Positions 1 through 48,757 are shown, counted from the first letter of the stretch. The stretch is 64,000 nt of DNA from Patescibacteria group bacterium (GCA_041671645.1 JBAZBD010000001.1:735234-799233); one strand, 5' to 3'. Notes: generated by a model from the letters alone, not told the origin. Translations and numbers: made by a program.

Positions 1-11
1 TTAAATAAAAA

Positions 12-44
12 AAGGAGCCCGTTGAGGCTCCATTTTTTATTTCT
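12..44. terminator. Bidirectional rho-independent terminator: GGAGCC cgttga GGCTCC hairpin flanked by A/T runs on both strands
   Basis: Perfect 6-bp stem with T-run downstream on the + strand and T-run on the - strand. It sits directly after the stop of the small minus-strand ORF at 37..183. Confidence 0.5.
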
Positions 45-183
45 GTACAGTTATCGAGGACATACAATCTCTGCAATACCAAACCTTTTGAGTTCGTTTG
101 ACGATATTTCTACCGTCAGCACCCTTCTCAACGCAAAGCTTTTCCTTCTCAACCAAATTTCCGCTGCATCGAGGACAAATCAT
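37..183 (-). CDS. Small zinc-ribbon protein, 48 aa (CPRC...18 aa...CRDC)
   Basis: Own translation of the minus strand: MICPRCSGNLVEKEKLCVEKGADGRNIVKRTQKVWYCRDCMSSITVQK. Two CxxC pairs; absent from the ORF track because it is under 60 aa. Confidence 0.35.
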   Translation of the reverse strand: MICPRCSGNLVEKEKLCVEKGADGRNIVKRTQKVWYCRDCMSSITVQK

Positions 184-270
184 TTGTTGTCTTTCTTTTA
201 GTGACTCTTTATTGTATACTTATTTCTCGCATTTAGCAAGTTTTGGGGCCTATTTTCAAGTTCATTTCCA

Positions 271-299
271 TTGACAAATAGCACAAAATAGCGTATTAT
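271..299 (+). promoter_or_regulatory. Sigma70-like promoter (TTGACA, 17-nt spacer, TATTAT) upstream of tmRNA
   Basis: Consensus -35 TTGACA at 271..276 and -10 TATTAT at 294..299 with 17-nt spacing. It lies ~60 nt upstream of the tmRNA 5' end, consistent with a processed precursor. Confidence 0.4.
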
Positions 300-360
300 T
301 GATCTTGACTTAGCTAGTCAATCCCGACATTAATTGAACATTGAGTATTTCAATCGACTC

Positions 361-745
361 GGGGGTGTATTAGCTTCGACAGCTGGATCTTTGAAAACAT
401 ATCGCAAGCAGGTAAGTCGGTCGCCTTAAAGCGCTGACAAATCCAAGTGCAAACTCACTTGTTAGCAAAGTAAAAGCTGCCTTCGGTAGCCTTAGCTTTG
501 CGCCAGCTTTAGCTTAATTGCTTTAGCCATACGTCCGAGGCTTTTCGACTTCGGGTCACGTGTGTAATATTCGAAATGCAGTTTTATCGGTTTTCAAGCG
601 ACTAAACGTAAGATTTACTTGAGATAGGACAAAAGTTTCTTGGTGACTTTCCAAGCTTAGTCCGAATAAATTGAAGGTCACTACGCTTGTAGAAAATATG
701 TTTCCAACCAGTTGGACGCCGGTGCGACTCCGACCACCTCCACCA
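361..745 (+). ncRNA. ssrA: tmRNA (SsrA, transfer-messenger RNA)
   Basis: 5' GGGGGUG... pairs with 3' ...CACCUCC-A-CCA to give a tRNA-like acceptor with a G3:U70 wobble (the Ala identity element). T-arm-like GGUGCGACUCCGACC precedes the 3' end. An internal tag reading frame ends ...F-A-P-A-L-A then TAA (stop at 515..517). Length ~385 nt is typical for tmRNA. Confidence 0.85.
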
Positions 746-2243
746 TAAGGGAATCTGAACCAGTTTCAGGTTCTTTTTTGTTTGTAATTAGCCTCAAAAT
801 AGGGCTAATTTGAGGGGTGCAAACTTTTTCAGAAAAATTTACAATAATTTCGCCAGGAAATGCTAGCTGTTTGCACTTTGTGCGCTTATCTCTATCAAGC
901 GACCTCCATTTGTTCAGTCCTCCATCTAAAAATTTCAATGAAAAATTCACAAATTCAACAAAGTCTTTGTCGATATCCTCGCTTTCAAAAAGCTCTCTCT
1001 CAAGAAATTTTATGTTCTTTTCAAAGTCATCTAGCACATCCTTAAAATACGGCTCTTTTTGAGGGTCGTCATTTGTAATCATTTTCATACCAATCTGTTT
1101 TTTGTCAGATATGAGCTGATCAAGCCGTTTTTTCATCTCGTCAATTTTGTCGAGCGTGATCTGCTCGTTTTCTTTCCAAACTTCGTTTAACGCTTCGATA
1201 AAGCCGTCTTCCATATCATTTTCAAGGCAAACCTCGCCTAGTTTAATATCAAGGTTAATATGAACAGTTGTGGCGTGGTATTGCTTACCACAACCTCTAC
1301 AGCGGTATTTTGGACTAGTCCAGCCTTTACCATTTCTATGGACAAATCCAACTAACTTTCCTCCGCACTCACAACGACCGATATTACCCAGGGGAAATTC
1401 TTTCCGATCATTTTTCCGCTCGAAAATTCGTTTTTTACCAGAAACAACAGCTTTCAACTCTTCGAATTCTTCAATCGAAATCATAGGTTTGTGTAACCCT
1501 TTGAGGCCGTGAAATTCTTGTGAATCCCATTTCTTAACAGTAATCAGCCCAGCATAATAATCTTCAGCAAGTATCTCCCTAAATCTGTCAATGCGGAGGA
1601 TCTTCCCTGTTGTTGTGCGATATCCATTGTTCGTCATATTAACAAGTGCTTCACTCACAGTTGATTGACCAGTAATTATTTCTCTCATTGCAGATTGCAA
1701 TAAAGGGAAGCGAATTGGATCTGGCTCAAATAGACCAGGTACTGTCGTCCTGCGATACCCCTGATGTATTGGGAAAGGGTAATATCCTGCTTTTACTCTC
1801 CCCTTGAGTCCACTCATAGTTTTCCCAATACGTTCGTCGTTGCTTGCCTCAGCTCGAAAAACTAAAAATAGCTTTTGTAATTTGCTCATCATATCATCAG
1901 TATTTAACTCTGGCTGAGAAGCATACCAAACTTTTACACCAAGTTGTTCGAATTCAGCTTCAAAATAGTAGAAATACTTAATATCTCTCATAAAGCGATC
2001 TACTTCATCAACGATTAGATACTTAACTCGCTTATTTTTCTTGCAAAAATCCATCATCTCAGCAAGATCCTTGCGATTTAAGTTTTTCCCTACCCTACTG
2101 GATTGGTCAAGCGACCATTTTCTTAGAATTGGTGCTTCCAATAATTCCGCAGTTTTTTCTACGTTTTCATCTTGTCTATCCAGACTATGATTAGTCATTC
2201 GCTGTTCTGGTGTAGACACTCTACATAATGCAATCGAATTCAT
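681..2243 (-). CDS. Large serine recombinase (resolvase/invertase N-terminal catalytic domain, recombinase domain, Zn-ribbon); C-terminus overlaps the tmRNA 3' end
   Basis: N-terminal ALCRVSTPEQ catalytic-serine motif; C-terminal CECGG...CRGCG zinc ribbon; 520 aa. The last ~21 codons are read from the antisense of the tmRNA 3' region. Confidence 0.85.
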   Translation of the reverse strand: MNSIALCRVSTPEQRMTNHSLDRQDENVEKTAELLEAPILRKWSLDQSSRVGKNLNRKDLAEMMDFCKKNKRVKYLIVDEVDRFMRDIKYFYYFEAEFEQLGVKVWYASQPELNTDDMMSKLQKLFLVFRAEASNDERIGKTMSGLKGRVKAGYYPFPIHQGYRRTTVPGLFEPDPIRFPLLQSAMREIITGQSTVSEALVNMTNNGYRTTTGKILRIDRFREILAEDYYAGLITVKKWDSQEFHGLKGLHKPMISIEEFEELKAVVSGKKRIFERKNDRKEFPLGNIGRCECGGKLVGFVHRNGKGWTSPKYRCRGCGKQYHATTVHINLDIKLGEVCLENDMEDGFIEALNEVWKENEQITLDKIDEMKKRLDQLISDKKQIGMKMITNDDPQKEPYFKDVLDDFEKNIKFLERELFESEDIDKDFVEFVNFSLKFLDGGLNKWRSLDRDKRTKCKQLAFPGEIIVNFSEKVCTPQISPILRLITNKKEPETGSDSLMVEVVGVAPASNWLETYFLQA

Positions 2244-2640
2244 AAAATCCTTTGTAAATTAACAAAAATGGCAGTCTCTTGGGTACTCCGCACGGTTACG
2301 GAAAGAGGCTGCCATTGCTGGCTCCAAAATTTTACCGTTTTAGTATGTACCCACTTAACATTCTAATACTTATTCATTCATCTTTTAACACCTCCTTCAC
2401 AATTTCTTTATTATTTTTATATAAACCATACAAAAATCTAGCCCAGTCCTTGAGATGTGCTTCTTTCTCGACTTTCGTCATTTCTAGATTTTTGTTTGTT
2501 AATGGTTTCATTTTGAATAAATAAGCCCCTTAGTAAGAGGCAACTTAATCTAAGAGGCTTATTAAAAGAAATTTTATTGCCTACAAAAATATCCTCTGAG
2601 AAGAGGATATAGCATTGTATGGGAGTGCAAAAATATAGTA

Positions 2641-3282
2641 TCAGTGTGGATCGGCGTGATCTTTTATCTCCAATGAGAGGGTAACGTTACCACTATTTGA
2701 AGAGATTTCATACTTATTTAAGGAGGTTCTTTTTCTAATTTCAGCAACAGTATCTTTGATCTTTCTCGTATTCTCTGCTTTGCACCCTGGTGCTTTGGCA
2801 TCTATAAGTCCCAATAATCTGAGAGCTCTGGCTCTTGTTATCTTTTTACTTTTCACCAACGCTCCGAAAAGTAGACTTGTATTTTTGCCTTCTGTGAGCC
2901 TGAATTTCTTACCTTTTATATTTCCCCTGCCTGTTACCGACGAGTACCAGCAATCAGCATCAGAAACAATGCTATTGTTCTGTTCAGTCTGACTAATACC
3001 GTTAAACATATCTAAGTATTCACTATAAAATTCCTGGTACACATAAATTACATAATTCCTGGAGCTACAATAATTAAACGGCTCCATTATCTCAATTATC
3101 TTTAGAGCACCACGTTCCTCAAGCCATTTTAGTACGATTTCAAGATCACTTATTGGAAATTCAGGATTTTCTTTTGAGAATTGTATATCAGAAATTATTA
3201 TCGTCTCTTTTTCCTCAAGAGTTCGACATTCATCTATATGATTCAGCACTATCCCAATTTTTTTATATGCAGCTATGCTCAT
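2641..3282 (-). CDS. Hypothetical protein (island cargo), possible C-terminal HTH
   Basis: 213 aa ORF, AT-rich, no recognisable catalytic motif. Basic C-terminal segment ITRARALRLLGLIDAKAPG. Confidence 0.5.
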   Translation of the reverse strand: MSIAAYKKIGIVLNHIDECRTLEEKETIIISDIQFSKENPEFPISDLEIVLKWLEERGALKIIEIMEPFNYCSSRNYVIYVYQEFYSEYLDMFNGISQTEQNNSIVSDADCWYSSVTGRGNIKGKKFRLTEGKNTSLLFGALVKSKKITRARALRLLGLIDAKAPGCKAENTRKIKDTVAEIRKRTSLNKYEISSNSGNVTLSLEIKDHADPH

Positions 3283-3564
3283 TTGTTGCCTCTTTTTTCT
3301 ATTTATTGAAAATATATCCTATTTGTGGCAATATTAAAATAAGTTGAAATTTATTTCAGCTTAATACAATCTATATGTGCCTAACCCCAAATAGTAATAT
3401 TTGGGTATGGTATTAAATCCTCTACTAAATGAAGACGGCTTTCCGTCCATACTTTTAGTAGAGGTCTATATTCGAAAGGATATAGGGTAAGTTCCGAAAG
3501 GGGCTGCCGTGGCGGAAGGCCATTTTTGTATTCAATTTTAGTTCTAAAATAATTAAGGAGGCAA

Positions 3565-3750
3565 ATGCCAAAAGAAGAAAAAGAGAAGAAACCTGTTTGG
3601 AAAAAGTGGTGGTTCTGGGTCATCGTCGTGATTGTTATTATATGTTTGATTCCCAAGGGCTCAATAGAGAAAGCTACGAACAGCCTTGATTCAACAAACG
3701 ATAAACTCAAGGGCACATCAGATCAGATTCAAACTGAGCTTAAGAAATAG
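3565..3750 (+). CDS. Small membrane protein (1 TM)
   Basis: Strong RBS AAGGAGG 7 nt upstream; hydrophobic core WWFWVIVVIVIICLI; 61 aa. Confidence 0.5.
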   Translation: MPKEEKEKKPVWKKWWFWVIVVIVIICLIPKGSIEKATNSLDSTNDKLKGTSDQIQTELKK

Positions 3751-3762
3751 AAAGGAAATCTT

Positions 3763-4425
3763 ATGGCTGTATTCTTTACGTTAATGCTATTCGTTTCAAT
3801 TGTTGTTCTAGTTCTTGGATTGATTAGTCCAAAAATAATCAATAAATTCATCAAAAATGAGAAGAAACACTTCGATCGCAAAAAGGTGGGGAAGGTTTTC
3901 GGCTTGATTACTATTGGATTCTTTATTTTGACTATGATTTCAATTATCGTTCCAGCCGCTAAAGAAGATGCTAAAAAGGAATCGATCAGCCAAGACAAAT
4001 CCGTTTCTGATAATCTTTGGATTGCCTTGGATAATGCGACCAACTCAAGGAATGGATATTCGGTCGATTATTACGCATTGAATAAAAGCGTGATGATTAA
4101 AAAAGAGCCTGACACTGCTTGGGACGACAATACTTTTGTTATGACTGCTTATCAAACATATGTTAAGTTTGGCAAAACAGCCTTCAGTATTGAAGGTGTA
4201 GACTCAGTTAGTTTTATCTGGTGGGCAAATATGATTGATAGCAAGGGGCAATCAGAAAAATCAAAAGGGATTCAGATTGAGATGACAAAAGAACAATTTT
4301 CTCAATTCAACTGGGATAATCTCGTTGGGAGAAACATATATGAACAGATGCAACCATATCAATGGATTCATACAGGAATATTAAATAAGTTGAACAAGGA
4401 TAAACTAATTTTGCTTACTGTGTAG
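3763..4425 (+). CDS. Membrane protein with two N-terminal TM helices and an extracytoplasmic domain
   Basis: 220 aa, RBS present, two hydrophobic helices then a soluble domain. Tightly follows the 3565 ORF. Confidence 0.6.
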   Translation: MAVFFTLMLFVSIVVLVLGLISPKIINKFIKNEKKHFDRKKVGKVFGLITIGFFILTMISIIVPAAKEDAKKESISQDKSVSDNLWIALDNATNSRNGYSVDYYALNKSVMIKKEPDTAWDDNTFVMTAYQTYVKFGKTAFSIEGVDSVSFIWWANMIDSKGQSEKSKGIQIEMTKEQFSQFNWDNLVGRNIYEQMQPYQWIHTGILNKLNKDKLILLTV

Positions 4426-4427
4426 TA

Positions 4428-4961
4428 CTATACTTTTAATATTTTCTTCTCGTTCATAATATTTTTCATACTTTCTTCTCGCTCGTACGCTTTAATAATC
4501 ACATCGAGCATTCTTTGTTGTTTTCTATAATATTCTAAAGGATTTTGATCAATCAATTCTTGCTCTTGCTGGTTTCTCATCCCTTGCTCTTTAATCTCGG
4601 CCTCTTTTCGTTCGATGATTCTCAACTTATCTTCTGGGTATGATTTCATATGAAGTTCGTGGAGTTTGCCGACAAGCGTGCCTATTGTGTATGCCGTTTT
4701 CGAATCCATCAAACCATTGGCATCTACTTGTCTGGTTCTGCTTATAGTGTCTTTTAAGAGCATCTCAAGGCCTTCTGAAGTTGATAGATCAATCGGATCG
4801 ACAACAACCTTAGCAACGCTCTTATTGGCTAACCCACCTATCTTCACGGCTCGGAGATGTTTTTTCTTACTGGCTGGATCGTGAGAAAAACAAAATTTGC
4901 TTCCGCTTACCGAGAAAGCCCCACACTGCTTACCGTCCGATTTTGTATATTGGCATTGCAT
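4428..4961 (-). CDS. Zinc-finger (C-x9-C...C-x2-H) plus coiled-coil protein, third gene of the AAA/S8 operon
   Basis: N-terminal CQYTKSDGKQCGAFSVSGSKFCFSHD; C-terminal charged coiled coil. Starts 28 nt downstream of the S8 gene stop on the same strand. Confidence 0.55.
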   Translation of the reverse strand: MQCQYTKSDGKQCGAFSVSGSKFCFSHDPASKKKHLRAVKIGGLANKSVAKVVVDPIDLSTSEGLEMLLKDTISRTRQVDANGLMDSKTAYTIGTLVGKLHELHMKSYPEDKLRIIERKEAEIKEQGMRNQQEQELIDQNPLEYYRKQQRMLDVIIKAYEREESMKNIMNEKKILKV

Positions 4962-4988
4962 AAATAATTAGAATGACTAGTCAAGTTA

Positions 4989-7358
4989 CTAAGCTTCCGC
5001 AGACACTACTTCAATCGGCAAAGAAATTTCAGTTGCAACCTCGAATTGGCCAGTCTGAATTATCGATTCCCTAATATTATTTGATCCCTCTTTGTCGATT
5101 ATGGTGAGCACAAAAGAATAGGGCTGTTTGATATTACCTGGACTACCTAAGTTTTGTTTTTCATATTCTGAATAAACATTCATACTAATGTTGATCTGGA
5201 GAAACGGAGTTTTAACCGCCATTTTTTGACCCTGGAAATGAATTACATTAAATTTCTGATTTTTATAATTCTCCCAATTCCATTGACCATTTTTGGGGTT
5301 GACGTTATCAGGCTTATTCCCTTCTTCCCCATTTTCATCGATTGTAGGCTCCATTATTCGCACCGAAGCACCTACTTCAATCATATTATAGTTTTTTGGG
5401 AAATTTTTATTTGTTGGAGGATTATAGACAAGTGTAAAAATAAATCCAATATTTTTACCAACAAGATTCTGAGGCAATTCAATATTTAGCTTATGCTTCT
5501 TGTTATCATTCTCCAAAATATCACAATACATAAAGGTTACCTTGTTTTCGTCGTCATCCTGAATCGGAATTGACCAGTCTGGTATTCCAAAACCATATGC
5601 CTTTTTAACTGAATCGCTTGTTATCCGTGTTTGTTCTCTTAACGAAGTAGAGTGTATTAATAAAGATTTAACAAGATTAACACGATTCTTCCTTATATCT
5701 AGAACATTGGGAATATTGGAATTAATTATATAGTCATATAGAAGAGCGGATTGTCTTGCAATAAGTGGAGCACTAAAGCTAGTACCAATATCTTTAGACA
5801 GGCCATTCATATCTATTCCTTCAACACCAAAGGAATTGCTCGATGCGGTCAAAAAAGGTCTCTGGTATGAGCCTGAGGGATCTATTTTAATATTTCCACC
5901 GCTTTCTACTAATTCTGGCTTTTTGATACCTTCTGCATATCCGCTTTTTCCGTATCCGCCCCTTCGTGTAAATGGCGATGGGAGGCCTTTTCCACAATAA
6001 CAATCAGCTGACGCATCAGCAGCAATCGATCCAACAGTCAGTACATTCAATGCATCTCCAGGCGAGGCAACAATAGCAGAAAGATTACAATCATCAAAAA
6101 TTTCTTCATATTTATTGCCAGGATAACAAGTATTATTTCCAGCACTACAGACAATAAGAATATCTTTTTCTCTTGCAATTTCATCCACCTTCGCAGTCAA
6201 ATCACTTACATCATCTTCTTCTATGCTTTTATTTTCATTAATTGATAGATTATATACAAAGACATCCGAGTGTCGATTTGCGACATTCTCAATTGCTTTT
6301 GTTATCTTAGTAGCATCTTTGTAATTTGAGTTAGGGCCAAAAAGAATCTGAGAATCGATTATTTTAGATATGGGAATCAGTCTCCTGTTGGCAGATATTT
6401 GCCCAGTGATATTATCGCCGAATAGAAGTCTACTTGCGACAAAAGTGCCGTGATTATTGTCTATGCCCTGATTGGCAAGCAGAGAATTATATTGAAGTGA
6501 TACAAATTTATCTATTAATGGATGCTTGATACCACTATCGATAACGGCAACAGTTTGCGATGTATCCACCTCGCCTAGTACAACTTCACTTAAATCAACA
6601 CCGCTAATACTCCTCTGCAGATTAAACTTTGGCGAGATTTTAATTTTATTGATAAAATTAAAACTTATTTCTGATAATAAGCTGTTTATTTCCGCTACAT
6701 ACAATTCAGCTCCATACAGCAGATTATAAACGAAAAAGTCTTCATCGAGCATAAACACTTTTCCAGAACCCAACCGCTGAGATAATTTTTGATATATTTC
6801 ATTATATTCTGGCCTTAGCCTATCTTGAGTTATTTCAATAATACAGTCTATTTTTTCGTTAAATACATTATCACAAAGTTCACGAATAGCCCTGTCCATT
6901 CTTATATCATTGCTGGTATTAACATCTTGGATACTTGAAATCGCATATACCTCTCTGGAGAATTTAACTCTTTTTCTCGAGCCTCCCTCCTTTGCAATTT
7001 CAAAAGAACACGAATCCATAACTTCTCGTAATTTTTTGAAATCACTTTTCTTACCAGCTAATTTATAAGTAAATTCATCTCTTGATGCCACAACATCCAA
7101 ATTTGATTCTTTCCATAGTTCGCTTGGCCTATTTGACTTAGACCTAACCTCATCAATCAATTTTATTTCTGCATAAACTTTGTCGTCTTCTGCTAGCGGC
7201 AAATCCACAATACTTTGAGCTGAATTTTTCAGGTCTCTAATGCGTATCCGATAATCAGCAACATTATCGAAGCCACACCAAAATTTTTCCCAGTAAGCTC
7301 CGAAACCCGTTTTTTGCTCTTTATCAACTTTTTTCTTTGGAATTAAAATATTGCTCAT
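4989..7358 (-). CDS. S8 family subtilisin-like serine peptidase (IetS-like)
   Basis: Catalytic triad motifs in order: VAVIDSGI (Asp), HGTFVAS (His), GTSFSAPLIA (Ser). 789 aa with a long N-terminal extension. Start overlaps the stop of the upstream AAA gene by 4 nt. Confidence 0.85.
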   Translation of the reverse strand: MSNILIPKKKVDKEQKTGFGAYWEKFWCGFDNVADYRIRIRDLKNSAQSIVDLPLAEDDKVYAEIKLIDEVRSKSNRPSELWKESNLDVVASRDEFTYKLAGKKSDFKKLREVMDSCSFEIAKEGGSRKRVKFSREVYAISSIQDVNTSNDIRMDRAIRELCDNVFNEKIDCIIEITQDRLRPEYNEIYQKLSQRLGSGKVFMLDEDFFVYNLLYGAELYVAEINSLLSEISFNFINKIKISPKFNLQRSISGVDLSEVVLGEVDTSQTVAVIDSGIKHPLIDKFVSLQYNSLLANQGIDNNHGTFVASRLLFGDNITGQISANRRLIPISKIIDSQILFGPNSNYKDATKITKAIENVANRHSDVFVYNLSINENKSIEEDDVSDLTAKVDEIAREKDILIVCSAGNNTCYPGNKYEEIFDDCNLSAIVASPGDALNVLTVGSIAADASADCYCGKGLPSPFTRRGGYGKSGYAEGIKKPELVESGGNIKIDPSGSYQRPFLTASSNSFGVEGIDMNGLSKDIGTSFSAPLIARQSALLYDYIINSNIPNVLDIRKNRVNLVKSLLIHSTSLREQTRITSDSVKKAYGFGIPDWSIPIQDDDENKVTFMYCDILENDNKKHKLNIELPQNLVGKNIGFIFTLVYNPPTNKNFPKNYNMIEVGASVRIMEPTIDENGEEGNKPDNVNPKNGQWNWENYKNQKFNVIHFQGQKMAVKTPFLQINISMNVYSEYEKQNLGSPGNIKQPYSFVLTIIDKEGSNNIRESIIQTGQFEVATEISLPIEVVSAEA

Positions 7359-8446
7359 TTTATATTATCCCTTAGTGTTGTATACGGCATCGATGTTATG
7401 TCAGATATTTCTTTAATGGAATACCCCTTGTCTTTTAGTAATTGACATACCTTATAAGATTGTTTTTTTTCGATTAAAGGCTTACTGGAAAAATCCAAAA
7501 TATTTTTCAATGCAAAAGTATTATCAATAATCTCAATCTTTTCCAAAATTGCTCTTTTTTTCATATGTATAACTATGTCCGAGATTGCCGATCCACTCAG
7601 CCCTTCTGTGAGATCTGCTAAGAGCTCAAAATCTAACTTATGTCTGAACTTATCAATAAATAGCTTTATTAATTGTTTCCTGGCTGGCTTGGAGGGCACT
7701 CCCAAACTGATTCTCAAAGGAAATCTTCTCCAAATGGCCGTATCCAGAAGTCCCTCGTGGTTTGTCGCTCCAATTATTATTGAATTTTGCGGAAAAGAAT
7801 CAATGTTTTGTAACAAAACTGTTACTATCCTCTTCAACTCTCCGAGCTCTTTCTCATCAGCTCTGTCTTTTGCAATAGTATCTATCTCATCAAGAAAAAT
7901 CAGAACTTCTTGTTTCTTTGCGATATCAAAAATATCTTTTATGTTTTTACCAGTTTTGCCTAGATAAGAAGAAATTAATTCATCTAATCTAACAAGGACT
8001 AATGGTAAATTTAATTTATTTGCTAAACCATATGCCAGCTTTGTTTTTCCTGTACCAGGAGGACCATAAATTAACAATTTATTAGTTGGACTTATACCAA
8101 AATCGCTTAATTTTATCCTATTTTCCCACTCTATTAGAAAATTCTTGATTTTTTTCTGATTCTCGATATCAAGTACAACCTCCTCTAGAAGAATCTTCGA
8201 TTCAATATATTCAACTAACGATTCGTTTTTTGATGAATATATCTGGTGATCGTTTTTTACCGATTGAAAAGAATACGCTTTTTTATCAGGGATTTTGGAA
8301 AGTAAATTTCTAAGCCGTCTGGAAACAATATTCTGACCCATTTTCTTTCTTTTCTCAATTTCTCCCTCAAGTATAGAAATGATTTTTTTATTATCGCTCT
8401 GAATAAAAGCACTGGCGATATCTTCAATAATTTCGACGCTTGACAT
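7355..8446 (-). CDS. AAA+ ATPase (classic-clade AAA, IetA-like)
   Basis: Walker A GPPGTGKT; Walker B IFLDEID. A Vps4/spastin-like segment SSYLGKTGKNIKDIF. 363 aa; translationally coupled to the S8 peptidase. Confidence 0.85.
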   Translation of the reverse strand: MSSVEIIEDIASAFIQSDNKKIISILEGEIEKRKKMGQNIVSRRLRNLLSKIPDKKAYSFQSVKNDHQIYSSKNESLVEYIESKILLEEVVLDIENQKKIKNFLIEWENRIKLSDFGISPTNKLLIYGPPGTGKTKLAYGLANKLNLPLVLVRLDELISSYLGKTGKNIKDIFDIAKKQEVLIFLDEIDTIAKDRADEKELGELKRIVTVLLQNIDSFPQNSIIIGATNHEGLLDTAIWRRFPLRISLGVPSKPARKQLIKLFIDKFRHKLDFELLADLTEGLSGSAISDIVIHMKKRAILEKIEIIDNTFALKNILDFSSKPLIEKKQSYKVCQLLKDKGYSIKEISDITSMPYTTLRDNIK

Positions 8447-8579
8447 ATTCGTACCCTCCTCCGTTATTTTTACCTCAATTACATTGTAAATTTATTAGTA
8501 CGAAAAATCAACCGATGAACAATTCCGTATTTTATTCTTGGTAAGCAAAAATAATATCCATCACAAATATTCAATGATC

Positions 8580-9536
8580 TTATGGATTAGGAGTTCTTTC
8601 GATTATTTCATCTAGCAACATATATGTATAAATTATTATTTTTTGAGCAACTTCCTTTGTAATTGAGTGTTTATCTCCTTTTGCTTCCAGTCTTGTAACC
8701 GAATCAATCAACTCACATACATATTCGGACGTATCACGTGCTACAGAGTCCTCTATTTTTTTCCCTTTCATAAACTCTTTAATCCTCAGCCTATAGTGTT
8801 CAGTATCAAGCTTAATCACCTTACCATCTCTTGTTGTTGTCGTTTCGTTAGAGGGAGGATAAATAATATCAGCAATTCTTATAATTATTCTTCTGCAACC
8901 ACTTGCGACATTCGACCAGTCTGGTTGATTATCAGAATTGGCAGATTTGTAAGCCGTGACTAATTCTTGCAAAATTTCTGGCACTTTGTTCTTCATCTCT
9001 TTCTCGACAATGTCTCTAATCTCAGAAAAGATGTCTGAAGCAGCCTCACTAAAACTTAACGCATTATATACATCCGCTATAAAACAATATAGCCGTCCTC
9101 TAATACGAGACAGAATTGACTGACTTGTCCTAATAGATTCAGAAATTGTATTTCTTTCAAATGCATTACTATGTGGCACATAAGTTGAATACTGGCTTGA
9201 TGACTGAAATGATATATTTGGGTCATTGGCTACGCTTAATCTAATTTTCAGAGTATCTATGGTGTTCTCAAGTACCTCAACGTGATCTAGTCTATAGATA
9301 ATTTCTTTACCAACCGTCCAGTATCTACCATTTGCTACTATATTGTCCTTGTCACCAGCAACATATTGGTTAAGAGTCCCAGTAATCTCTTTTTCGATCC
9401 AAATTTGATTCTTCGTGTCGTTCACAAGCCGAGCCAACAGAGCACCTTTTTGCAAAAGTATGCTAAGTTTACTACCACCAAAGGTTTCCAAAATCTCAGT
9501 AGCCAAAGTTAGTGCTTTTTTGTGATGGTCTTTCAT
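8580..9536 (-). CDS. Hypothetical protein (island cargo; possible abortive-infection-type protein)
   Basis: 318 aa, no recognisable motif. Located in the AT-rich island upstream of the AAA/S8 operon with its own upstream region. Confidence 0.55.
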   Translation of the reverse strand: MKDHHKKALTLATEILETFGGSKLSILLQKGALLARLVNDTKNQIWIEKEITGTLNQYVAGDKDNIVANGRYWTVGKEIIYRLDHVEVLENTIDTLKIRLSVANDPNISFQSSSQYSTYVPHSNAFERNTISESIRTSQSILSRIRGRLYCFIADVYNALSFSEAASDIFSEIRDIVEKEMKNKVPEILQELVTAYKSANSDNQPDWSNVASGCRRIIIRIADIIYPPSNETTTTRDGKVIKLDTEHYRLRIKEFMKGKKIEDSVARDTSEYVCELIDSVTRLEAKGDKHSITKEVAQKIIIYTYMLLDEIIERTPNP

Positions 9537-9834
9537 AATTTTAAGAATAAACCCTGATGTTCATTATTACAAGTTATTATTAAGTGCTAATACTGTCTGG
9601 GATCTACTGAACTTAAAGCAAGTTTATATTTCCCATATTCAGAATGAAGAACTTCTCGCCATCGCCTCGATTCTTCAATGATAAAATGCAAATTTTTACG
9701 CACCAGTACCACCAAAAAATGATCAGATTTATTTTGGTCTTTTTTTGTTGCATAACATCTTCAGGCATTACTCAGTTTGCTCATTTATAATCATCTTAGG
9801 GTCGATAAGATAATAATAAATAAGAAGGAGAATT

Positions 9835-10299
9835 ATGAAGAACAAGAAGATTTTACTTTCCGTGACCGCGCTGACACTGGCCGTAGCTGGTGCAGTCTGG
9901 TACGGCGGGAACAAGGTACTAGCGGCAAACGGTGTTGGACATGACGCAATGGTCTCGACATTATCAGAGAAACTTGGTGTGCCAGAAGACAAAGTTACCG
10001 CGGCATTCGATTCGATCGAAACACAGCGACAGGCAGACAGAGTAGCAGAGCGAAAAAACCAGCTCGATAAAGCTGTCTCGGCCGGCGTGATTACACAGGA
10101 GCAGGAAGATAAGCTGGTAGCGAAGCACGCGGAGCTTCAAGCAGACAGAGAAAAGGAACGCACGGAGCTTGAGCAATGGTACAAGGATAACGGTATTGAT
10201 CAGAGCAAGCTGTCTGAATATACCGGACGCGGAGGAATAGGTATGGGGCAAGGTATGGGTAGAGGAATGGGCGGCCAAGGGCATATGGGCGGAATCTAA
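9835..10299 (+). CDS. Secreted protein with signal peptide and Gly/Met-rich C-terminus
   Basis: RBS AAGGAG; N-terminal MKNKKILLSVTALTLAVAGAVW signal-like sequence; GC ~50%. Confidence 0.6.
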   Translation: MKNKKILLSVTALTLAVAGAVWYGGNKVLAANGVGHDAMVSTLSEKLGVPEDKVTAAFDSIETQRQADRVAERKNQLDKAVSAGVITQEQEDKLVAKHAELQADREKERTELEQWYKDNGIDQSKLSEYTGRGGIGMGQGMGRGMGGQGHMGGI

Positions 10300-10310
10300 T
10301 AAGTAATATG

Positions 10311-10336
10311 AAACACCTCACATATGTGAGGTGTTT
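10311..10336. terminator. Perfect 26-nt palindrome (AAACACCTCACATATGTGAGGTGTTT), likely a terminator hairpin
   Basis: Perfect inverted repeat immediately after the 9835..10299 stop. No strong T-run follows. Confidence 0.3.
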
Positions 10337-10421
10337 CTGTATTCCGTCGCCAAATTTTTAAATTCTTGACATATGTGGTAGATTGCTCCTAAGCACTCTA
10401 CGCACACTGGGAGGCAAAAAT

Positions 10422-37113: not shown

Positions 37114-37224
37114 CTTCTTGGAGCCAAATATTGGTACCCCTAATGCACTTTGCTTCGAACCTTTATTAGCATGGCTCGACCAACTTATGCGTGCTTACGA
37201 TAAAGAAAAGGACGCTGGATGAAT

Positions 37225-37452
37225 TTATGATAATTCTGAAACATCCAGTGTTTTTATTTTTAACAGTTTCATGATCTTCGCCAGAATATCAAGCGAAGGT
37301 TTCACCTCTCCCCTTTCGAGCCGCGCATAATAATTAACAGTAACGCCAACAACCTCTGCAACTTCTGCTTGTGTAAGATTAGCTGATTCCCTGGCCTTTC
37401 TAAACTTATTGCCAAGATCATTCAAGTTTTTATTACTGTTCAAGTTAGTCAT
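37225..37452 (-). CDS. XRE-family HTH transcriptional regulator
   Basis: LTQAEVAEVVGVTVNYYARLERGE helix-turn-helix; 75 aa. Confidence 0.75.
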   Translation of the reverse strand: MTNLNSNKNLNDLGNKFRKARESANLTQAEVAEVVGVTVNYYARLERGEVKPSLDILAKIMKLLKIKTLDVSELS

Positions 37453-37523
37453 TCTGAGAACAATATACCAAAAATTATTTGAAATAACCAGCTCAAAAAT
37501 TATTAGACAACAAATGGAGGATC

Positions 37524-38234
37524 ATGTTTAACCAAAAACAAGCGTTTAGAGAATATCTAAACAGAAGGCAGGACGCAATTGATTCTGAGAAATCACAAGA
37601 TTCGCAAACCAGCAAATTGTTCAATGACAAAAATTTTTATAGCGCATTTACCAAAGACATGCTCAATGCTAAAAAGGAAGTCATCATTTACAGCCCATTT
37701 GTTGCCAAATTCAGAATGGACGAACTGAAACAAACTGTAGAAAAGCTTAGAAAAAGGAATATCGAAATATTCATTTTCACACGACCGACTGACGAGTATG
37801 AGACCATTTTCCAGCCTCAGATTCAGTGTGCACTTAAGCGTTATGGGGAGTTGGGGGTCAGTATTTTTTATCTTGGAGGCTCAATTCATGAAAAAGTAGC
37901 GATAATTGATCGAGAAATTCTTTGGGAAGGAAGCTTGAATATCCTCTCTCAGAGAGCAAGCAAGGAGATGATGAGAAGAACATCCAGCAAGGATTCGGCG
38001 ATGCAGATAATGTTTTATCTGGGATTAAACAAAAAGTTAGCAGAGAGCTACAAGCTTAAATACGAAAGACTGTATCGAAGTTTAATAGACAATTCAGGGC
38101 AAAATTTCAGGCAGAAAATGTACATATTTCTGTTTGGATTTACAATTGCCTTAGTGTTTTGGTGGACTCTCGTTAACTTCAGGGAGATTAAATTATTCTC
38201 CCCCTGGAATTGGCTCGTAATGAGCTTCATTTGA
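37524..38234 (+). CDS. Phospholipase D-like (single HKD motif) protein with C-terminal TM helix
   Basis: HEKVAIID...GSLN matches the H-x-K-x4-D...GSxN motif; 236 aa. Divergent from the XRE regulator. Confidence 0.65.
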   Translation: MFNQKQAFREYLNRRQDAIDSEKSQDSQTSKLFNDKNFYSAFTKDMLNAKKEVIIYSPFVAKFRMDELKQTVEKLRKRNIEIFIFTRPTDEYETIFQPQIQCALKRYGELGVSIFYLGGSIHEKVAIIDREILWEGSLNILSQRASKEMMRRTSSKDSAMQIMFYLGLNKKLAESYKLKYERLYRSLIDNSGQNFRQKMYIFLFGFTIALVFWWTLVNFREIKLFSPWNWLVMSFI

Positions 38235-40211
38235 GTTGCGTCCTGAAACAAATAGATTCTTCGGTTTAAATCCGTAAAGCGCCAAACTGCTGAAGATCAC
38301 TATAATTGAAACTCCGACGTCGGCGAAGATGGCAAAAGCCAAGTTGCTCAACCCTGATAAGGCTAGGATTACAAACAGGAACTTAATTGCCAATGCCAGG
38401 CCGATATTAAATTTGATTGTTTGTCTCACTTTTTTGCCAAGCACTATTAAAAATGGAATCTTGCCAATATTATCATCCATGATTGCAATATCGGCGTTTT
38501 CTATCGCCATATCCGAGCCGACTGACCCAAGTGTGATGCCGACATTTGAAATAGCCAGAGAAGGAGCGTCATTGATGCCATCACCAACCATGGCAACACG
38601 AGAGTATTCCTTTTTCAAATTTTGGACTTGTGTAACTTTATTTTCAGGAAGAAGAGATGAATATACTTTACTAAGGCCAATATTGCTAGCAACATATCGG
38701 GCCGTACTTTCATTATCTCCAGTTAGCATAATAGGAGTAATACCCGCTTGTTTTAGGAAGGAGATTAGTGGCTTGCTCTCGTTCCTGATTGTATCCTCGA
38801 TAGCGATAACGCCCTCGATATGGGTTTTATTGGCTACAATAATTGTAGTCTTGCCTTCTTTTTCAAATTTATCAACTGCTTTTCTTGTCTGTTCGTCAAT
38901 CTTAATTTCATTCTCAACAAATGATAAATTGCCCAGGCAAGATGTTGTCTTGCAAATTGAACAATGGCCGATAATACCCTTGCCGGAAAGCGATTTGAAA
39001 TCAGTAGCTGGCAGCACAGTCACGCCCAGCTCTCGCGCTTTGTCCAGTATTCCTTTAGCCAATGGATGACCCGAATGAATCTCTAGTCCTGCAGCGCAAG
39101 CAAGAATCTCCTTCTCACTGTATCCATTGAATGTCACAATATCAGACACTCGAATTTCGCCAGTCGTCAAAGTTCTAGTCTTATCAAAGGCAATGGCTTT
39201 GATTTTACCGAGCTCCTCTAAATATTTTCCACCTTTAATAAGTATCCCCTGCCTGTTGGCGTTACCAAGAGCAGAGAACACAGCAATCGGAGTAGAGATA
39301 ACCAAGGCACAAGGGCAAGAGATAACAAGCAAACTCAAGGCCTGAATAAACCAAGTATTGAAAGGTAATCCTAGAAAAACCACCGGAATTATTACGATAA
39401 GAGATGCAATAACCATAACTGCCGGAGTATAATATTTTGCAAATCTCTCAATAAACTCCTGGGATTTTGACTTGTTCTTATTTGCACTTGCTGTCATCTC
39501 GATAATTTTGGCGATAGTTGAATCACCTGATTTTTTCATTACCTTTATTTCTAGCGAACCATCAATATTGACTGTGCCGGCATAAACCAGATCATTCATT
39601 CCTTTGGTTTCCGGGATAGGCTCGCCCGTAATGGTTGCTTCGTCGACCAGAGAACTGCCAGATACAATAACACCGTCAAGCGCAATAGTATCACCTGGTT
39701 TAACGATAATAATATCGCCAATATTAATATCCTCGATCGGAGTTTTATCTTCATCGCCCCTTTTTAAAACTGTTTTAGGAGTTTTTTGAATTAATTCCTC
39801 AAGAGCTTTTTTGCTTTTCTTGATTCCAATTTCTTCAAGAGTCTCAGCCAGGGCAAAGAGAACGACAATTGTGACCGCTTCTTCGAATTGTCCAAGATAG
39901 AGAGCGCCAAAAACTGCGATGGTCATCAATAGATTGATACTTGAGAATTTTAGCTTCAAAAGACTTTTGATGCCGCTGACGAAGACATCTCTACCAAAAA
40001 CAATTAGAAGAATGATAGAAATCGGCAGCTCGATAAACAAAGGTATTTTTACTGATAGTAAGGACAAGATCTCCATCGGCACTATGATGGCAATCGAAAT
40101 TAAAAGCAATACGAACTTTTTGTTTTTCCAGATAGAATTGATTTCTTGTGCCTCTTGTTTTCTTGAGCAACAGTCATCGTTGCAATAATTATCGTTTTTT
40201 TGTTTTTGCAT
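38193..40211 (-). CDS. Heavy-metal translocating P1B-type ATPase
   Basis: CPC in TM6 (SCPCALV); phosphorylation site FDKTRTLT; TGDN; GDGINDAP hinge; N-terminal Cys cluster CNDDCC. Confidence 0.85.
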   Translation of the reverse strand: MQKQKNDNYCNDDCCSRKQEAQEINSIWKNKKFVLLLISIAIIVPMEILSLLSVKIPLFIELPISIILLIVFGRDVFVSGIKSLLKLKFSSINLLMTIAVFGALYLGQFEEAVTIVVLFALAETLEEIGIKKSKKALEELIQKTPKTVLKRGDEDKTPIEDINIGDIIIVKPGDTIALDGVIVSGSSLVDEATITGEPIPETKGMNDLVYAGTVNIDGSLEIKVMKKSGDSTIAKIIEMTASANKNKSKSQEFIERFAKYYTPAVMVIASLIVIIPVVFLGLPFNTWFIQALSLLVISCPCALVISTPIAVFSALGNANRQGILIKGGKYLEELGKIKAIAFDKTRTLTTGEIRVSDIVTFNGYSEKEILACAAGLEIHSGHPLAKGILDKARELGVTVLPATDFKSLSGKGIIGHCSICKTTSCLGNLSFVENEIKIDEQTRKAVDKFEKEGKTTIIVANKTHIEGVIAIEDTIRNESKPLISFLKQAGITPIMLTGDNESTARYVASNIGLSKVYSSLLPENKVTQVQNLKKEYSRVAMVGDGINDAPSLAISNVGITLGSVGSDMAIENADIAIMDDNIGKIPFLIVLGKKVRQTIKFNIGLALAIKFLFVILALSGLSNLAFAIFADVGVSIIVIFSSLALYGFKPKNLFVSGRNSNEAHYEPIPGGE

Positions 40212-40221
40212 GCCTCACTCC

Positions 40222-40584
40222 TTATTTCTCAAGACAGTTGTGTTGGACAGCCTTGTCTATTTTAGTTTTTGGTTTTCTTTTAAGTAGTTTATTTAACTTA
40301 GCTTCATTTTCTTTCAATACACCCCTGTTTAGATGGTGAACACTAAAATATCCACGCTTATGCTCGCTTAAAACTCCAGCTTCCTTGAGTTTGCCAAGGT
40401 GATGGGAAACCAAATTTTGGGGGAGATTTAAAGCTTCGCTAATATCACAGACACATTTACAATCATGCGAAAGTAGCGTCAGAATCTTTAATCTGTTCGG
40501 ATCAGCGATAACTTTGAGAAACTTACTGATATTCTCAATCTGACTCAAATCTTCGGTATTTAAGTAATCCATTATTTTATCCAT
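40222..40584 (-). CDS. ArsR/SmtB family metalloregulator
   Basis: HTH with a metal-sensing Cys pair (CKCVCDISEAL) and LVSHHL; directly upstream of the P-type ATPase. Confidence 0.8.
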   Translation of the reverse strand: MDKIMDYLNTEDLSQIENISKFLKVIADPNRLKILTLLSHDCKCVCDISEALNLPQNLVSHHLGKLKEAGVLSEHKRGYFSVHHLNRGVLKENEAKLNKLLKRKPKTKIDKAVQHNCLEK

Positions 40585-40670
40585 ATCAATTTATATTGAT
40601 ATAAATATATCACAAAGAAAGAACTTGCGCAACAATATTATGAGTTTTTGGTTGGGATAGCTTGAATTAG

Positions 40671-40967
40671 TTAATCCCCAAAATCAAAGAGATCACCCAG
40701 AAATCCGCTTCTTTTCTTCTTCTTGTAGCTATCATGACCTTTGTAATATTCATTTTCTTTGCGGCGGTCTTCATGCTGATGGTCATATGATACTCTAGGA
40801 GTCTCGTTCTGCTGGATTCTATTAGATGAATCCTGACTTGATCTCTCTATGATCTTATCTAGCTCTCCTCGATCAAGCCATACTCCGCGGCACTGAGGAC
40901 AATAGTCAATTTCAATCCCCTGGCGATCGCTCATTACTAAATCTATGTTGCATAATGGACATTTCAT
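40671..40967 (-). CDS. Zinc-ribbon protein (CPLC...CPQCRGVWLDRGEL type)
   Basis: Two CxxC pairs and a GxWLDxGEL motif; charged His-rich tail. Confidence 0.55.
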   Translation of the reverse strand: MKCPLCNIDLVMSDRQGIEIDYCPQCRGVWLDRGELDKIIERSSQDSSNRIQQNETPRVSYDHQHEDRRKENEYYKGHDSYKKKKRSGFLGDLFDFGD

Positions 40968-41049
40968 TTTTTAATCCTTTTTAAGTTAATTAGATTGGTT
41001 GCGGTAATATTCTTTATTGTTCTACATTTCTATCCTTTCGACTCAACAT

Positions 41050-41970
41050 TTACTTGACCAACACACCTTTATAGACACGGTAAGGTTTTGGGCCAACCAA
41101 CGTTTTCCCGTTGATAAAAACTGTTGGAGTACCATAAAGATCAGCGTCGCTCATTTGCTCTTTTTGCTTTTCTAACTCTTTCTTCGTTGAATCGCTTGTT
41201 GCACACTCATTAATTGTTTGAGGATTCATCTGGTACTTGGTTGTAAGCTCGTTAAGATATTCAGGCTTGAGCAAATCTTCCTTTTTTGATGCAAACAACT
41301 TGTCATTCAAATCCCAAAATTTGTCAGGATAGTTTTTGCTCGCGCAGTAAGAAAAATTTGTCAAAGTATCATTTGGATCTTTGGTCGGGAAATGAATAAA
41401 GGTTAAACTGCTTTTTTCTTTCTCAACTAGCTTCTTTACGATAGGGTAAGATTTTCGACTATAGTCACAGTTGTAGCAGCCTATAAAAACGATGTTATTT
41501 TTACTCTCTATTTTCTTTGAAGGGAATGCCGTGAGATCAATCTTGCTTTGATCTATACTCTCTGCGGTGTGTTCCTTAGCACTACACGTTTTGTTTTCAG
41601 CGGAAATTTGGTTATTGCCTCCAGTAGGATCAAAGACACAAAATCCGCTTTTGTTTAGGCCATTGCAACTGCCGTATTTGTAATAATTATAGCCGCCCTT
41701 AACAACATAAAATGTGCTTGCTATCATTAACATGAATAAGACAAATGAGAACAGCTCAAAATAGCGGTTTAAAATTTTAGCCATGAACGCAGATTTTGTT
41801 AGCATTCCACCAACTAATTTGCCTTTAACTTTTTCTTTAAAGCCTGTGTTGCAAGGCCTAAAAGTAGCTTTTCTAAAAACACAATCTAGTGCCTCCCTTG
41901 CCAGCTGGCGGTGAGTTGCACTAAAAAGTCCGAGTATAGAAAATACGATTAATGCGATTATACATGCCAT
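41050..41970 (-). CDS. Membrane thiol-disulfide oxidoreductase: N-terminal polytopic domain (VKOR/DsbB-like, tentative) fused to a thioredoxin-fold CxxC domain
   Basis: N-terminal TM helices with loop Cys pairs. C-terminal IGCYNCDY CxxC plus thioredoxin-like ...YGTPTVFING. In an operon with SufS-like and DsbA-like genes. Confidence 0.45.
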   Translation of the reverse strand: MACIIALIVFSILGLFSATHRQLAREALDCVFRKATFRPCNTGFKEKVKGKLVGGMLTKSAFMAKILNRYFELFSFVLFMLMIASTFYVVKGGYNYYKYGSCNGLNKSGFCVFDPTGGNNQISAENKTCSAKEHTAESIDQSKIDLTAFPSKKIESKNNIVFIGCYNCDYSRKSYPIVKKLVEKEKSSLTFIHFPTKDPNDTLTNFSYCASKNYPDKFWDLNDKLFASKKEDLLKPEYLNELTTKYQMNPQTINECATSDSTKKELEKQKEQMSDADLYGTPTVFINGKTLVGPKPYRVYKGVLVK

Positions 41971-43175
41971 TACAAAATCCTTACTATATTTTTAATTTGT
42001 TTAATTAAGGTTTCGGCTTCTGCTAAGGTGTTATAGAAGTATGTTGAAATTCTAATCACGCCTTTGATTTCCTTGTCTGAGAACCACGGATGGACACACA
42101 GCTGACCTGAGCGAATAGCAATATTTCCAGAATTCTCTAATAGTTGAGCGATATAATGCGGATCAGCGCCCTCGATATAAAAGGAGATGATTCCGCTTCT
42201 TTTTTTTGGCTCGGCGGGTCCGATCAACCGTAGGTTTGGCAAATTTATTAAATTCTCTGTTATATATTTATTTAAGATAAGATTTTGCTTCTCGATGTTT
42301 TCCATTCCAATAGAATTTATATAATCAAGCGCCGCCCCAAACCCAAAAATTCCTGAGTAATTCTGTATGCCCGCTTCAAATCTCTGTGGCGACGGGAGAA
42401 GCTCATAATCCGTATAACTTGCGCTGTTTACCGTTCCACCTCCGATCACAGATGAGACAAAGTTTTCAATAATCTCTTTTTTAATATACAGAATACCTAT
42501 TCCTGTCGGCCCCAGCATTTTGTGAGCCGAAAATACTAGAAAATCTACACCTAGTTTTTTGACATCGATTCTTCGGTGGGTAGCTGCCTGTGTAGCGTCT
42601 AGTAATACCAGTGAATTATATTTATGAGCCAGTTCAACTATTTCTTTGACTGGATAGGTTACTCCATCCAGGTTCGAAGTATATACCAAGGAAACAAGTT
42701 TAATGTTTCCTTGGTTTTTTTCTAGTTGTGATTTATAGTCTCCCAAGTCAAATTCACCATTGCTAGCCGTTTTGGTGATCAGATGCTGAATTTTGCTATG
42801 TTTTGCTAATCTTACCCACGGCAGAAAATTGGAGTTGTGCTCTTTATCAGAGGTTAAGACGATATCGCCAGCTTTGAAGTTAAAAGAGTTAGCAACAAAA
42901 TTTATGCCCTCGGTCGCATTTTTTACAAATATCACCTCATTAGAATTATTTGCATTTATAAACTTCGCGGTCTTTTGTCTTACTTTTTCACACTTTTCGC
43001 CCACGACCTGACTCAGCTTGTAGCTGCCTCGATCGCAGAAAGGAAATTCCCTATAAAATTGTGAGACTGCCTCAATTACCGAGTTGGGCTTCAGAGTTGT
43101 GCAAGCATTATCAAAATAGATAAGCTTTGAATCTGACAGTATCGGAAAATCTTGGCGAGTCTTTTCTAGGTTCAT
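41970..43175 (-). CDS. Cysteine desulfurase (class V aminotransferase, SufS/NifS family)
   Basis: PLP-lysine motif FSAHKMLGPTGIG; catalytic Cys region GQLCVHP; 401 aa. Confidence 0.8.
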   Translation of the reverse strand: MNLEKTRQDFPILSDSKLIYFDNACTTLKPNSVIEAVSQFYREFPFCDRGSYKLSQVVGEKCEKVRQKTAKFINANNSNEVIFVKNATEGINFVANSFNFKAGDIVLTSDKEHNSNFLPWVRLAKHSKIQHLITKTASNGEFDLGDYKSQLEKNQGNIKLVSLVYTSNLDGVTYPVKEIVELAHKYNSLVLLDATQAATHRRIDVKKLGVDFLVFSAHKMLGPTGIGILYIKKEIIENFVSSVIGGGTVNSASYTDYELLPSPQRFEAGIQNYSGIFGFGAALDYINSIGMENIEKQNLILNKYITENLINLPNLRLIGPAEPKKRSGIISFYIEGADPHYIAQLLENSGNIAIRSGQLCVHPWFSDKEIKGVIRISTYFYNTLAEAETLIKQIKNIVRIL

Positions 43176-43903: not shown

Positions 43904-43911
43904 ATAGAGAT

Positions 43912-44313: not shown

Positions 44314-44349
44314 ATTCTATTGTTTTTGGGAGTGCTTGGCAACCAGTAC

Positions 44350-44400
44350 AAAATAAAAAGCGGGCAGGAAGAGGATCTTGAGTGATCCTTCCTGCCCGCG
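44350..44400 (-). terminator. Strong rho-independent terminator (16-bp GC-rich stem) on the minus strand
   Basis: GCGGGCAGGAAGGATC actcaa GATCCTCTTCCTGCCCGC followed by TTTTTATTTT on the minus strand. Confidence 0.7.
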
Positions 44401-44410
44401 GACGAAGCGG

Positions 44411-48755: not shown

Positions 48756-48757
48756 AA

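Follow-up and report, generated by a model that had tools for sequence, protein, structure and literature searches.

A defence-cargo island at a tmRNA gene of Patescibacteria, with a serine recombinase whose gene appears to contain the attachment site

The window analysed here is a stretch of 64,000 nucleotides from a metagenome-assembled genome of a Patescibacteria group bacterium (GCA_041671645.1 JBAZBD010000001.1:735234-799233); positions are counted from its first letter. Near its left end lie an intact gene for transfer-messenger RNA (tmRNA, ssrA) and, on the opposite strand, an open reading frame (ORF) for a large serine recombinase whose 3' end runs into that of the tmRNA gene (Table 1). 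The two overlap by 65 nucleotides, comprising the stop codon and the last ~21 codons of the recombinase, which read MVEVVGVAPASNWLETYFLQA. The recombinase belongs to an island of about 9 kb with defence-like cargo; how this island is joined to the tmRNA gene, and what the junction does to the recombinase, are the subject of this report.

Table 1. Features of the island and its junctions in the window
Feature	Positions	Strand	Evidence
tmRNA gene (ssrA), intact; last 6 nt, CCACCA, are the predicted crossover core	361..745	+	Rfam RF00023
attL core CCACCA	740..745	none	identity block common to attL, attR and attB
Putative element-supplied intrinsic terminator, GAACC-loop-GGTTC then TTTTTT	757..779	+	sequence; fold -5.5 kcal/mol
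Large serine recombinase, integrated form, 520 aa	681..2243	-	Pfam Resolvase 1e-14; Recombinase 0.0016
Small conserved ORF, 45 aa, ...KDWARFLYGLYKNNKE...	2374..2511	-	HMM match E 4e-13; window copy is a model seed
Cargo ORF, 213 aa	2641..3282	-	without family match
LOOT RNA motif, divergent from recombinase	3378..3505	+	Rfam RF03000, 71.5 bits vs gathering score 46.4
Cargo ORF, 220 aa	3763..4425	+	no family match
Cargo ORF, 177 aa	4428..4961	-	no family match
IetS, subtilase-family protease of IetAS	4989..7358	-	PADLOC 9.8e-71; Pfam Peptidase_S8 1e-29
IetA, AAA+ ATPase of IetAS	7355..8446	-	PADLOC 1.1e-96; Pfam AAA 2e-30
AbiTii-like abortive-infection protein	8580..9536	-	Pfam AbiTii 3e-6 (27.9 bits, cut-off 27.6); PADLOC 3e-8
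Displaced recombinase 3' exon, 40 codons + stop, VLVRKNLHFIIEESRRWREVLHSEYGKYKLALSSVDPRQY	9587..9709	-	in-frame reconstruction; tail matches
attR core CCACCA	9709..9714	none	empty-site comparison with L092
Native tmRNA terminator	9715..9746	+	directly 3' of tmRNA in L092; fold -7.2 kcal/mol, then T-tract

The tmRNA gene matched the Rfam model over its full length (positions 1-374 of 374; 99.4 bits against a gathering score of 47, E 1.3e-37). Its terminal CCA lies at 743-745, its acceptor stem (GGGGGUG/CACCUCC) includes the G3:U pair, and its tag reading frame, ANSLVSKVKAAFGSLSFAPALA, is similar to the tags of other Patescibacteria tmRNAs. ARAGORN called no tmRNA in the window and was overruled by Rfam; the program also missed the tmRNAs of three loci examined below (L010, L027 and L029). 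The T-stem (GCCGG/CCGAC; window 716-736) carries a C.A mismatch, found as well at ~4700-4720 of a related strain, L092 (GCA_964526355.1), whose ssrA site is empty. Because both the occupied and the empty-site strain have it, the mismatch is native, and it may be the cause of ARAGORN missing the gene.

L092 was reached via the right-flank protein of the window (9835-10299), which has a near-identical cluster mate on this other NCBI assembly. In L092 the tmRNA, ~90% identical to that of the window, is joined straight to the right flank. L092 3964-4731 aligns to window 5-748 with 89.6% identity and L092 4723-5372 aligns to window 9709-10362 with 86.3% identity; there is no sequence between the two L092 blocks, the two alignments share only CCACCAAAA, and the switch from tmRNA to right flank falls exactly at CCACCA. 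As L092 lacks the 9-kb block at the tmRNA 3' end, this comparison shows the block to be an insertion with exact ends. Three-way comparison of the two junctions (attL and attR) with the empty attachment site (attB) set the element at 8,969 bp, window 746-9714. The left arm of attL was identical to the left arm of attB at 44/45 positions, and the right arm of attR to the right arm of attB at 41/45; the remaining arms were unrelated (17/45 and 13/45). The tmRNA is full length, and the displaced RNA-gene fragment at the far end of the island is CCACCA only. The T right after CCA in attL belongs to the element; a crossover any further downstream is thereby excluded, and the crossover dinucleotide presumably lies within CCACCA.

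The GC content of the element is 0.356, compared with 0.408 to its left and 0.479 in the 10 kb to its right; in the profile it runs at 0.31-0.41 over ~750-9750 and then at ~0.47. The first-pass annotation had reported a tmRNA ending at 745 with CCA at 743..745 and G3:U, a GC drop over ~9 kb, ssrA as the integration site and a hypothetical or defence-like cargo, and had proposed looking for an empty ssrA site in a related genome and for a second, short copy of the tmRNA 3' end between 9.4 and 9.9 kb. The RNA gene and the GC drop were confirmed, L092 provided the empty site that bears out ssrA as the target, the duplicate proved to be the CCACCA of attR, and the cargo consists of IetS, IetA, an AbiTii-like protein and ORFs without family match. 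The duplicate had gone undetected in a generic repeat search, 6 nucleotides being below the reporting size of that search. Metagenome scans by exact matching for the predicted attB junction or the tmRNA 3' end gave 0 matches; single-nucleotide differences such as those of the relative, G to A in the T-loop and T to G behind the core, would in any case have kept exact matching from succeeding. In an independent assembly of the same strain (Logan SRR18595301 contig, L088/L089), the break is inside the tmRNA at about window position 500 and not at the att core.

The recombinase has a resolvase-type catalytic domain (PF00239, E 1e-14, residues 4-154). In a family comparison of 42 sequences, R8, V9 and S10 of the catalytic RVST were invariant, and the zinc-ribbon residues Cys291, 293, 315 and 318 were conserved. 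PF07508 was weak in the window protein (0.0016, below the cut-off) and is among the precomputed matches of many homologues. The AlphaFold 2 (AF2) model of a homologue, P0032, has a confidence score (pLDDT) of 83.6 and long helices at 340-418, and along its whole length it matched the integrases of SPbeta, Bxb1, PhiC31 and LI with E values of 3e-17 to 1e-10. Judged by this model, the protein is folded like a large serine recombinase. Pfam found no tyrosine integrase (phage-integrase) domain in any island ORF, and the sole recombinase of the island is of the serine type, the type that the first-pass annotation had given it.

In the integrated form, residues 1-501 are native and the last ~19-21 residues come from the antisense of the tmRNA. 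When the DNA on the left of attR was linked to that on the right of attL, the result was an uninterrupted in-frame ORF of 541 amino acids, the tail of which matched the extreme C-termini of P0007 (BLASTP, E 2e-11), P0032, P0091, P0102 and P0033. With a hidden Markov model (HMM) of this tail, for which the window tail is one of ten seeds, the displaced exon was the only significant match in the whole window. An in-frame ORF with a homologue-like tail shows, at the level of the reconstructed gene, that the recombinase gene contains the attachment site of the element (attP), 40 codons upstream of the stop. The codons antisense to tmRNA are a by-product of integration and not the native C-terminus. 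The minus-strand ORF of the first-pass annotation is therefore real, with its 520 codons and 65-nucleotide overlap, and its last ~21 codons are indeed encoded by the ssrA antisense; what the annotation took for the C-terminus of the recombinase is not the native one, which is encoded by 40 codons at the far island end. The split detaches these 40 of 541 codons and leaves all recognised domains (residues 1-485 of the P0032 model) in place. It is presumably this recombinase that catalyses insertion of the island.

The DNA around attP appears to carry several messages at once. A conserved protein stretch of the family, NKK(E/D)P...S.S.(M/L)V, corresponds on the opposite strand to CCA followed by a hairpin and a T-tract. 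In the window these are the codons ...NKKEPETGS..., the antisense of which is the hairpin at 757-779, whereas the native tmRNA terminator has been displaced by the insertion and is now 9 kb from its gene. A hairpin with a T-tract occurred within 50 nucleotides downstream of the target 3' end in 62/64 loci, with stem sequences that vary among loci and pairing that is kept. We infer that the embedded hairpin terminates transcription of the tmRNA.

A second constraint is seen in the motif GTTTACAC, located exactly 21 nucleotides from the core TGG in 35/44 attP sites. The motif occurs in all three codon phases, where it reads N-L-H, V-Y-T or K-F-A; it is essentially absent from the other three arms and is thus confined to the P arm, and its mirror image, sought on the other attP arm and on the attB arms, was not found. 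Its retention in all three phases and on one arm marks it as a DNA signal, most simply a putative recombinase-binding element. Past the attP span, the tail segment RW(R).(I/L)L...Y was conserved at the protein level across different targets and codon phases.

The same arrangement was found throughout a family of related recombinases. In all, 382 recombinase proteins were retrieved. Among the 120 homologues listed, most end in the antisense of tRNA or tmRNA 3' ends (MVELxGxAPxS, GGPGGTRTHDTLLKRQVL, VGFEPTTNRL), and 11 end in the common tail ...NLH.I..E..RWR.IL..Y.... A scan with one genome per species yielded 80 loci, nearly all from Patescibacteria and mostly from Saccharibacteria. The recombinase 3' end overlapped an opposite-strand tRNA or tmRNA gene in 66 of the 80, and 6 further loci were interrupted by contig ends. 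The targets were tRNA-Gly, Lys, Arg, Glu, Val, Met and Ala and, in 7 loci, tmRNA, and one geometry is shared by at least 9 different targets; with the same overlap in 66/80 independent loci, the overlap in the window is not due to chance. Displaced tail fragments were detected by the tail HMM in ~50 loci, all on the recombinase strand and 1.6-9.6 kb upstream, whereas chance matches would scatter over both strands and sides. The implied element sizes are ~3-11 kb, and the attL/attR identity blocks of 6-12 nucleotides start at the antisense of the ...NCCA end of the target (TGGTGGAGCTG, TGGTACACC, TGGTGCGGG). IMG/VR contributed only 2 loci, both integrated at tRNA-Gly. Across these loci, gene-internal attP and targeting of tRNA or tmRNA genes are shown to be the rule for this large Patescibacteria recombinase family. 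We found no description of the family in the open-access literature, an absence that is not proof.

Some loci depart from the common pattern. Upstream of one recombinase each, L003 (6407-8379) and L057 (2106-7411) have three displaced-tail fragments, an arrangement that suggests either elements stacked in tandem or relics at a single tRNA gene. At L013 (1-170, 5790-5840) the 'attR' shares 51 nucleotides with attL, including the recombinase-side arm, and resembles an intact attP; tandem copies, or circular and integrated forms mixed in the assembly, may be the cause. In L042, L023, L057 and L076 the recombinase 3' end lies in neither a tRNA/tmRNA gene nor a canonical tail. That of L042 ends in ...FMVRNYRTYSNFLNTLW..., and its sister locus L040 is at tRNA-Gly; these atypical ends may be rearranged or alternative junctions.

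Relatives of the element were also found as circles. The gene for P0032 lies on two contigs of 4,623 bp, which come from two sequencing runs. Each has a 30-bp overlap between its two ends, and the pair are circular permutations of a single molecule of 4,593 bp, with 0 mismatches between runs. P0091 and P0042 are on contigs of 4.6 kb and 7.9 kb, likewise with 30-bp terminal overlaps. All of these circular contigs carry a full-length recombinase gene and no tRNA or tmRNA gene. The permuted contigs and terminal overlaps show that free circular relatives exist. A 53-kb contig (L087, GCA_034680565.1) also has a full-length, unsplit recombinase gene and no tRNA gene, with a gene for a small terminase subunit ~2 kb upstream; it may represent a phage of Patescibacteria that shares this integration module. 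The idea that the small circles of these candidate phyla radiation (CPR) bacteria are inoviruses was rejected: the accessible part of the literature gave no link to these elements, and no morphogenesis gene was among the Pfam matches of the window cargo or the precomputed matches of the circle genes.

Upstream of the recombinase, on the same strand, a small conserved ORF was found by its HMM in ~40 loci, including circular forms, at a distance of 5-185 nucleotides. Its product has the motif A..[LF]A.[LF].Y.[LIM][FY]K and is a candidate directionality factor or regulator. A LOOT RNA motif was present in 24/87 sources, in 20 of which it is on the strand opposite to the recombinase, 0.4-1.2 kb upstream of that gene; the loci include L004, L005, L013, L020, L022, L052 and L081, and the motif is also on the 4.6-kb circle. 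No described function of LOOT was found in the literature, and the accessible part of the paper that introduced it gives nothing on the motif. The ORF at 3381-3716 (minus strand) overlaps LOOT and is probably spurious. BLAST clustering of the element ORFs revealed no common cargo backbone beyond the recombinase and the small ORF. In the window, the genes for IetA and IetS are adjacent with a 4-nucleotide overlap and count as an IetAS pair. That a Patescibacteria genome has this pair (4989-8446) on a mobile element of 9 kb suggests that defence cargo is mobile in these reduced genomes.

The window contains a second recombinase ORF of the family (48758-50359, plus strand, 533 amino acids), 26% identical to the first and matching the family profile at 1e-55. 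It ends inside the gene for tRNA-Arg(cct) (50275-50350, minus strand). A second copy of the 8-nucleotide core TGGTACCC lies at 37132, precisely on a GC boundary, and joining across the two cores produced an in-frame protein of 535 amino acids with the tail ...LLAWLDQLMRAYDKE.... The DNA between them, ~13.1 kb, has a GC content of 0.382, compared with 0.43-0.45 in the flanks. This suggests an element of a second, more distant family member at tRNA-Arg(cct), reaching from 37132 to 50274. Inside this putative element, ARAGORN called a tRNA-Ser with the unusual anticodon AGA (44857-44939, minus strand), which scored 37 bits in Rfam against 58-67 for the other tRNAs of the window; it could be cargo or a relic.

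Taken together, 746-9714 is very probably an integrative element with defence cargo, inserted in CCACCA by its own serine recombinase with a gene-internal attP. In the free circle the recombinase gene would be whole, encoding 541 amino acids with the tail ...NLH..E..RWR.vL..Y.... Recombination of attP with attB would leave the tmRNA sequence intact and put behind it a new intrinsic terminator, made from the antisense of the codons NKKEP...S.S. At the same time, the last 40 codons would be moved to the far island end, and the remaining ORF would read into the tmRNA antisense up to a chance stop at 681. Excision would rejoin the displaced exon in frame. Since the catalytic, recombinase, zinc-ribbon and coiled-coil parts are kept in the integrated form, the enzyme can probably still carry out excision, for which the small upstream ORF may serve as directionality factor.

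Several observations weigh against this interpretation. The shared core is just 6 nucleotides long, so that the crossover position is bracketed and not mapped, and the P-arm copy of the window, ATTTGCAT, situated within the displaced exon, is a weak 5/8 match to GTTTACAC. Look-ups of the flank protein and of P0001 gave only the occupied arrangement, which is the state of the sole other contig of the source strain, and no circular form of this element. As for the protein, the swapped tail is helical in the AF2 model with pLDDT <50, a low confidence, and the presumed activity of the integrated 520-residue form rests on the retained modelled domains.

The failure to find a circular form of the element itself would be expected if the element were locked, the split having inactivated the recombinase as in the archaeal 'suicidal' integrases and left an immobile remnant with a pseudogene-like ORF. 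Integration does remove a conserved tail of 40 residues, and the several tail fragments in L003 and L057 resemble accumulated relics. However, circular relatives exist, all recognised domains are intact, neither the recombinase ORF nor the displaced exon nor the small ORF is broken in the window or in ~50 loci, and the split takes away just ~7% of the protein, whereas splits of the SSV type give two large pieces; we consider such a lock unlikely. An arrival by another route, through a lost tyrosine integrase or homologous recombination with the serine recombinase as coincidental cargo or an invertase, would agree with the classical attribution of tRNA/tmRNA-gene islands to tyrosine integrases. 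It is effectively refuted, for the junction falls within the recombinase gene, whose in-frame completion comes from the far island end, the geometry recurs in 66/80 loci at no fewer than 9 targets, and the island has no tyrosine recombinase domain.

The exchange of C-termini itself can be read in more than one way. Similar MVE(L/V)xG(V/I/T)AP.S peptides recur in many homologues, as they would if the extension antisense to tmRNA were a selected, functional peptide; this is very improbable, in that the recurrence follows from the conserved 3' ends of tRNAs and tmRNAs, the tails differ wholly by target (GGPGGTRTHD..., VGFEPTT..., MVRVRRL), and their stops are arbitrary, from 4 to >60 residues past the core. 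The exchange might instead be a built-in switch of direction or regulation of the serine integrase, in which the full-length protein of the circle would favour attP x attB and the tail-swapped protein would permit or restrain attL x attR, possibly with the small upstream ORF and the divergent LOOT RNA taking part; this is a tentative proposal, to which we give rather less than even weight. It is nearly an even bet that the exchange has no regulatory meaning, the overlap of attP and gene being a compact module and direction being set by a separate factor such as the small ORF. Consistent with a compact module, tail conservation is partly at the DNA level (GTTTACAC being kept in three codon phases), the AF2 prediction of the tail is of low confidence, and the conserved small ORF stands beside the recombinase in ~40 loci. 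Against it, the protein-level conservation of RW(R).(I/L)L...Y past the attP span suggests that the tail matters to the protein.

Genomic islands at ssrA include CP4-57 and VPI-1. The accessible part of the Islander description has islands in tRNA/tmRNA genes 'catalyzed by tyrosine integrases'. Like Islander/TIGER islands, the window island sits at a tmRNA 3' end with the gene regenerated, carries accessory (defence) cargo and has a composition unlike that of its host. In contrast to them, its enzyme is a serine recombinase; the core of 6-12 nucleotides at the extreme ...NCCA end replaces a longer duplicated tDNA, and the element supplies a putative terminator where those islands supply a sizeable piece of the RNA gene. 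With the PhiC31, Bxb1, A118/LI and SPbeta SprA integrases, the enzyme shares the domain architecture, the fold and short att sites with a minimal core. Known phage-type large serine integrases mostly use protein-coding or intergenic targets, and their attP lies outside the int gene. In the present family, by contrast, tRNA/tmRNA 3' ends are the regular targets, the recombinase ORF contains attP, and a putative terminator is encoded as well in the attP arm on the side of the recombinase body.

The archaeal 'suicidal' integrases of the SSV type (SSV1/2, pTN3, pT26-2) are tyrosine enzymes whose own gene contains attP, and they have been described as restricted to archaea; their split gives two inactive pseudogenes, and the gene disruption is viewed as a regulator of direction. 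The window element is like them in having attP in the integrase ORF, tRNA-gene targets across its family, a gene split on integration and a compact module. It differs in its bacterial host, its serine chemistry and the detachment of only the last ~40 codons with the domains intact. Of the known systems, these archaeal tyrosine integrases are the closest analogue. In mycobacteriophages BPs and Brujita, which use a tyrosine integrase, attP lies in the repressor gene and integration changes the C-terminus of the repressor. The window element resembles this integration-dependent immunity in that attP is in a coding region and integration alters a C-terminus; unlike BPs and Brujita, it is the serine recombinase itself that is altered. 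Prochlorococcus tycheposons, according to the accessible part of their description, overwhelmingly have tyrosine recombinases, with a large serine recombinase in 27/937. Like the window element, they are small, carry cargo and occupy tRNA/tmRNA genes of streamlined genomes; that part describes no gene-internal attP or C-terminal exchange, unlike the situation in the window.

The element is best regarded as a variant of known systems, new as a serine-recombinase integrative element that combines targeting of tRNA/tmRNA 3' ends, a gene-internal attP and a dual-coded putative terminator. Integration into tRNA and tmRNA genes is usually credited to tyrosine integrases; in the present case the extreme 3' ends of these genes appear to be used by an entire clade of large serine recombinases. 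As a bacterial case of gene-internal attP with serine chemistry and a milder split, it offers a testable model of direction control in serine integrases. If the exchange of C-termini were a switch, the 'suicidal' integrases of archaea would have a bacterial counterpart with serine chemistry in this family, and with the crossover in the universal CCA end the family could retarget easily among tRNA genes. One stretch of DNA would have three jobs under overlapping constraints, as protein on one strand, as terminator on the other and as part of attP. LOOT RNA gains a genomic context. Patescibacteria are hard to manipulate genetically, and small, self-contained modules that integrate at tRNA genes and have a defined attP and attB are candidates for use as tools. 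In the reduced genomes of these bacteria, such elements appear to be a route for the movement of defence genes.

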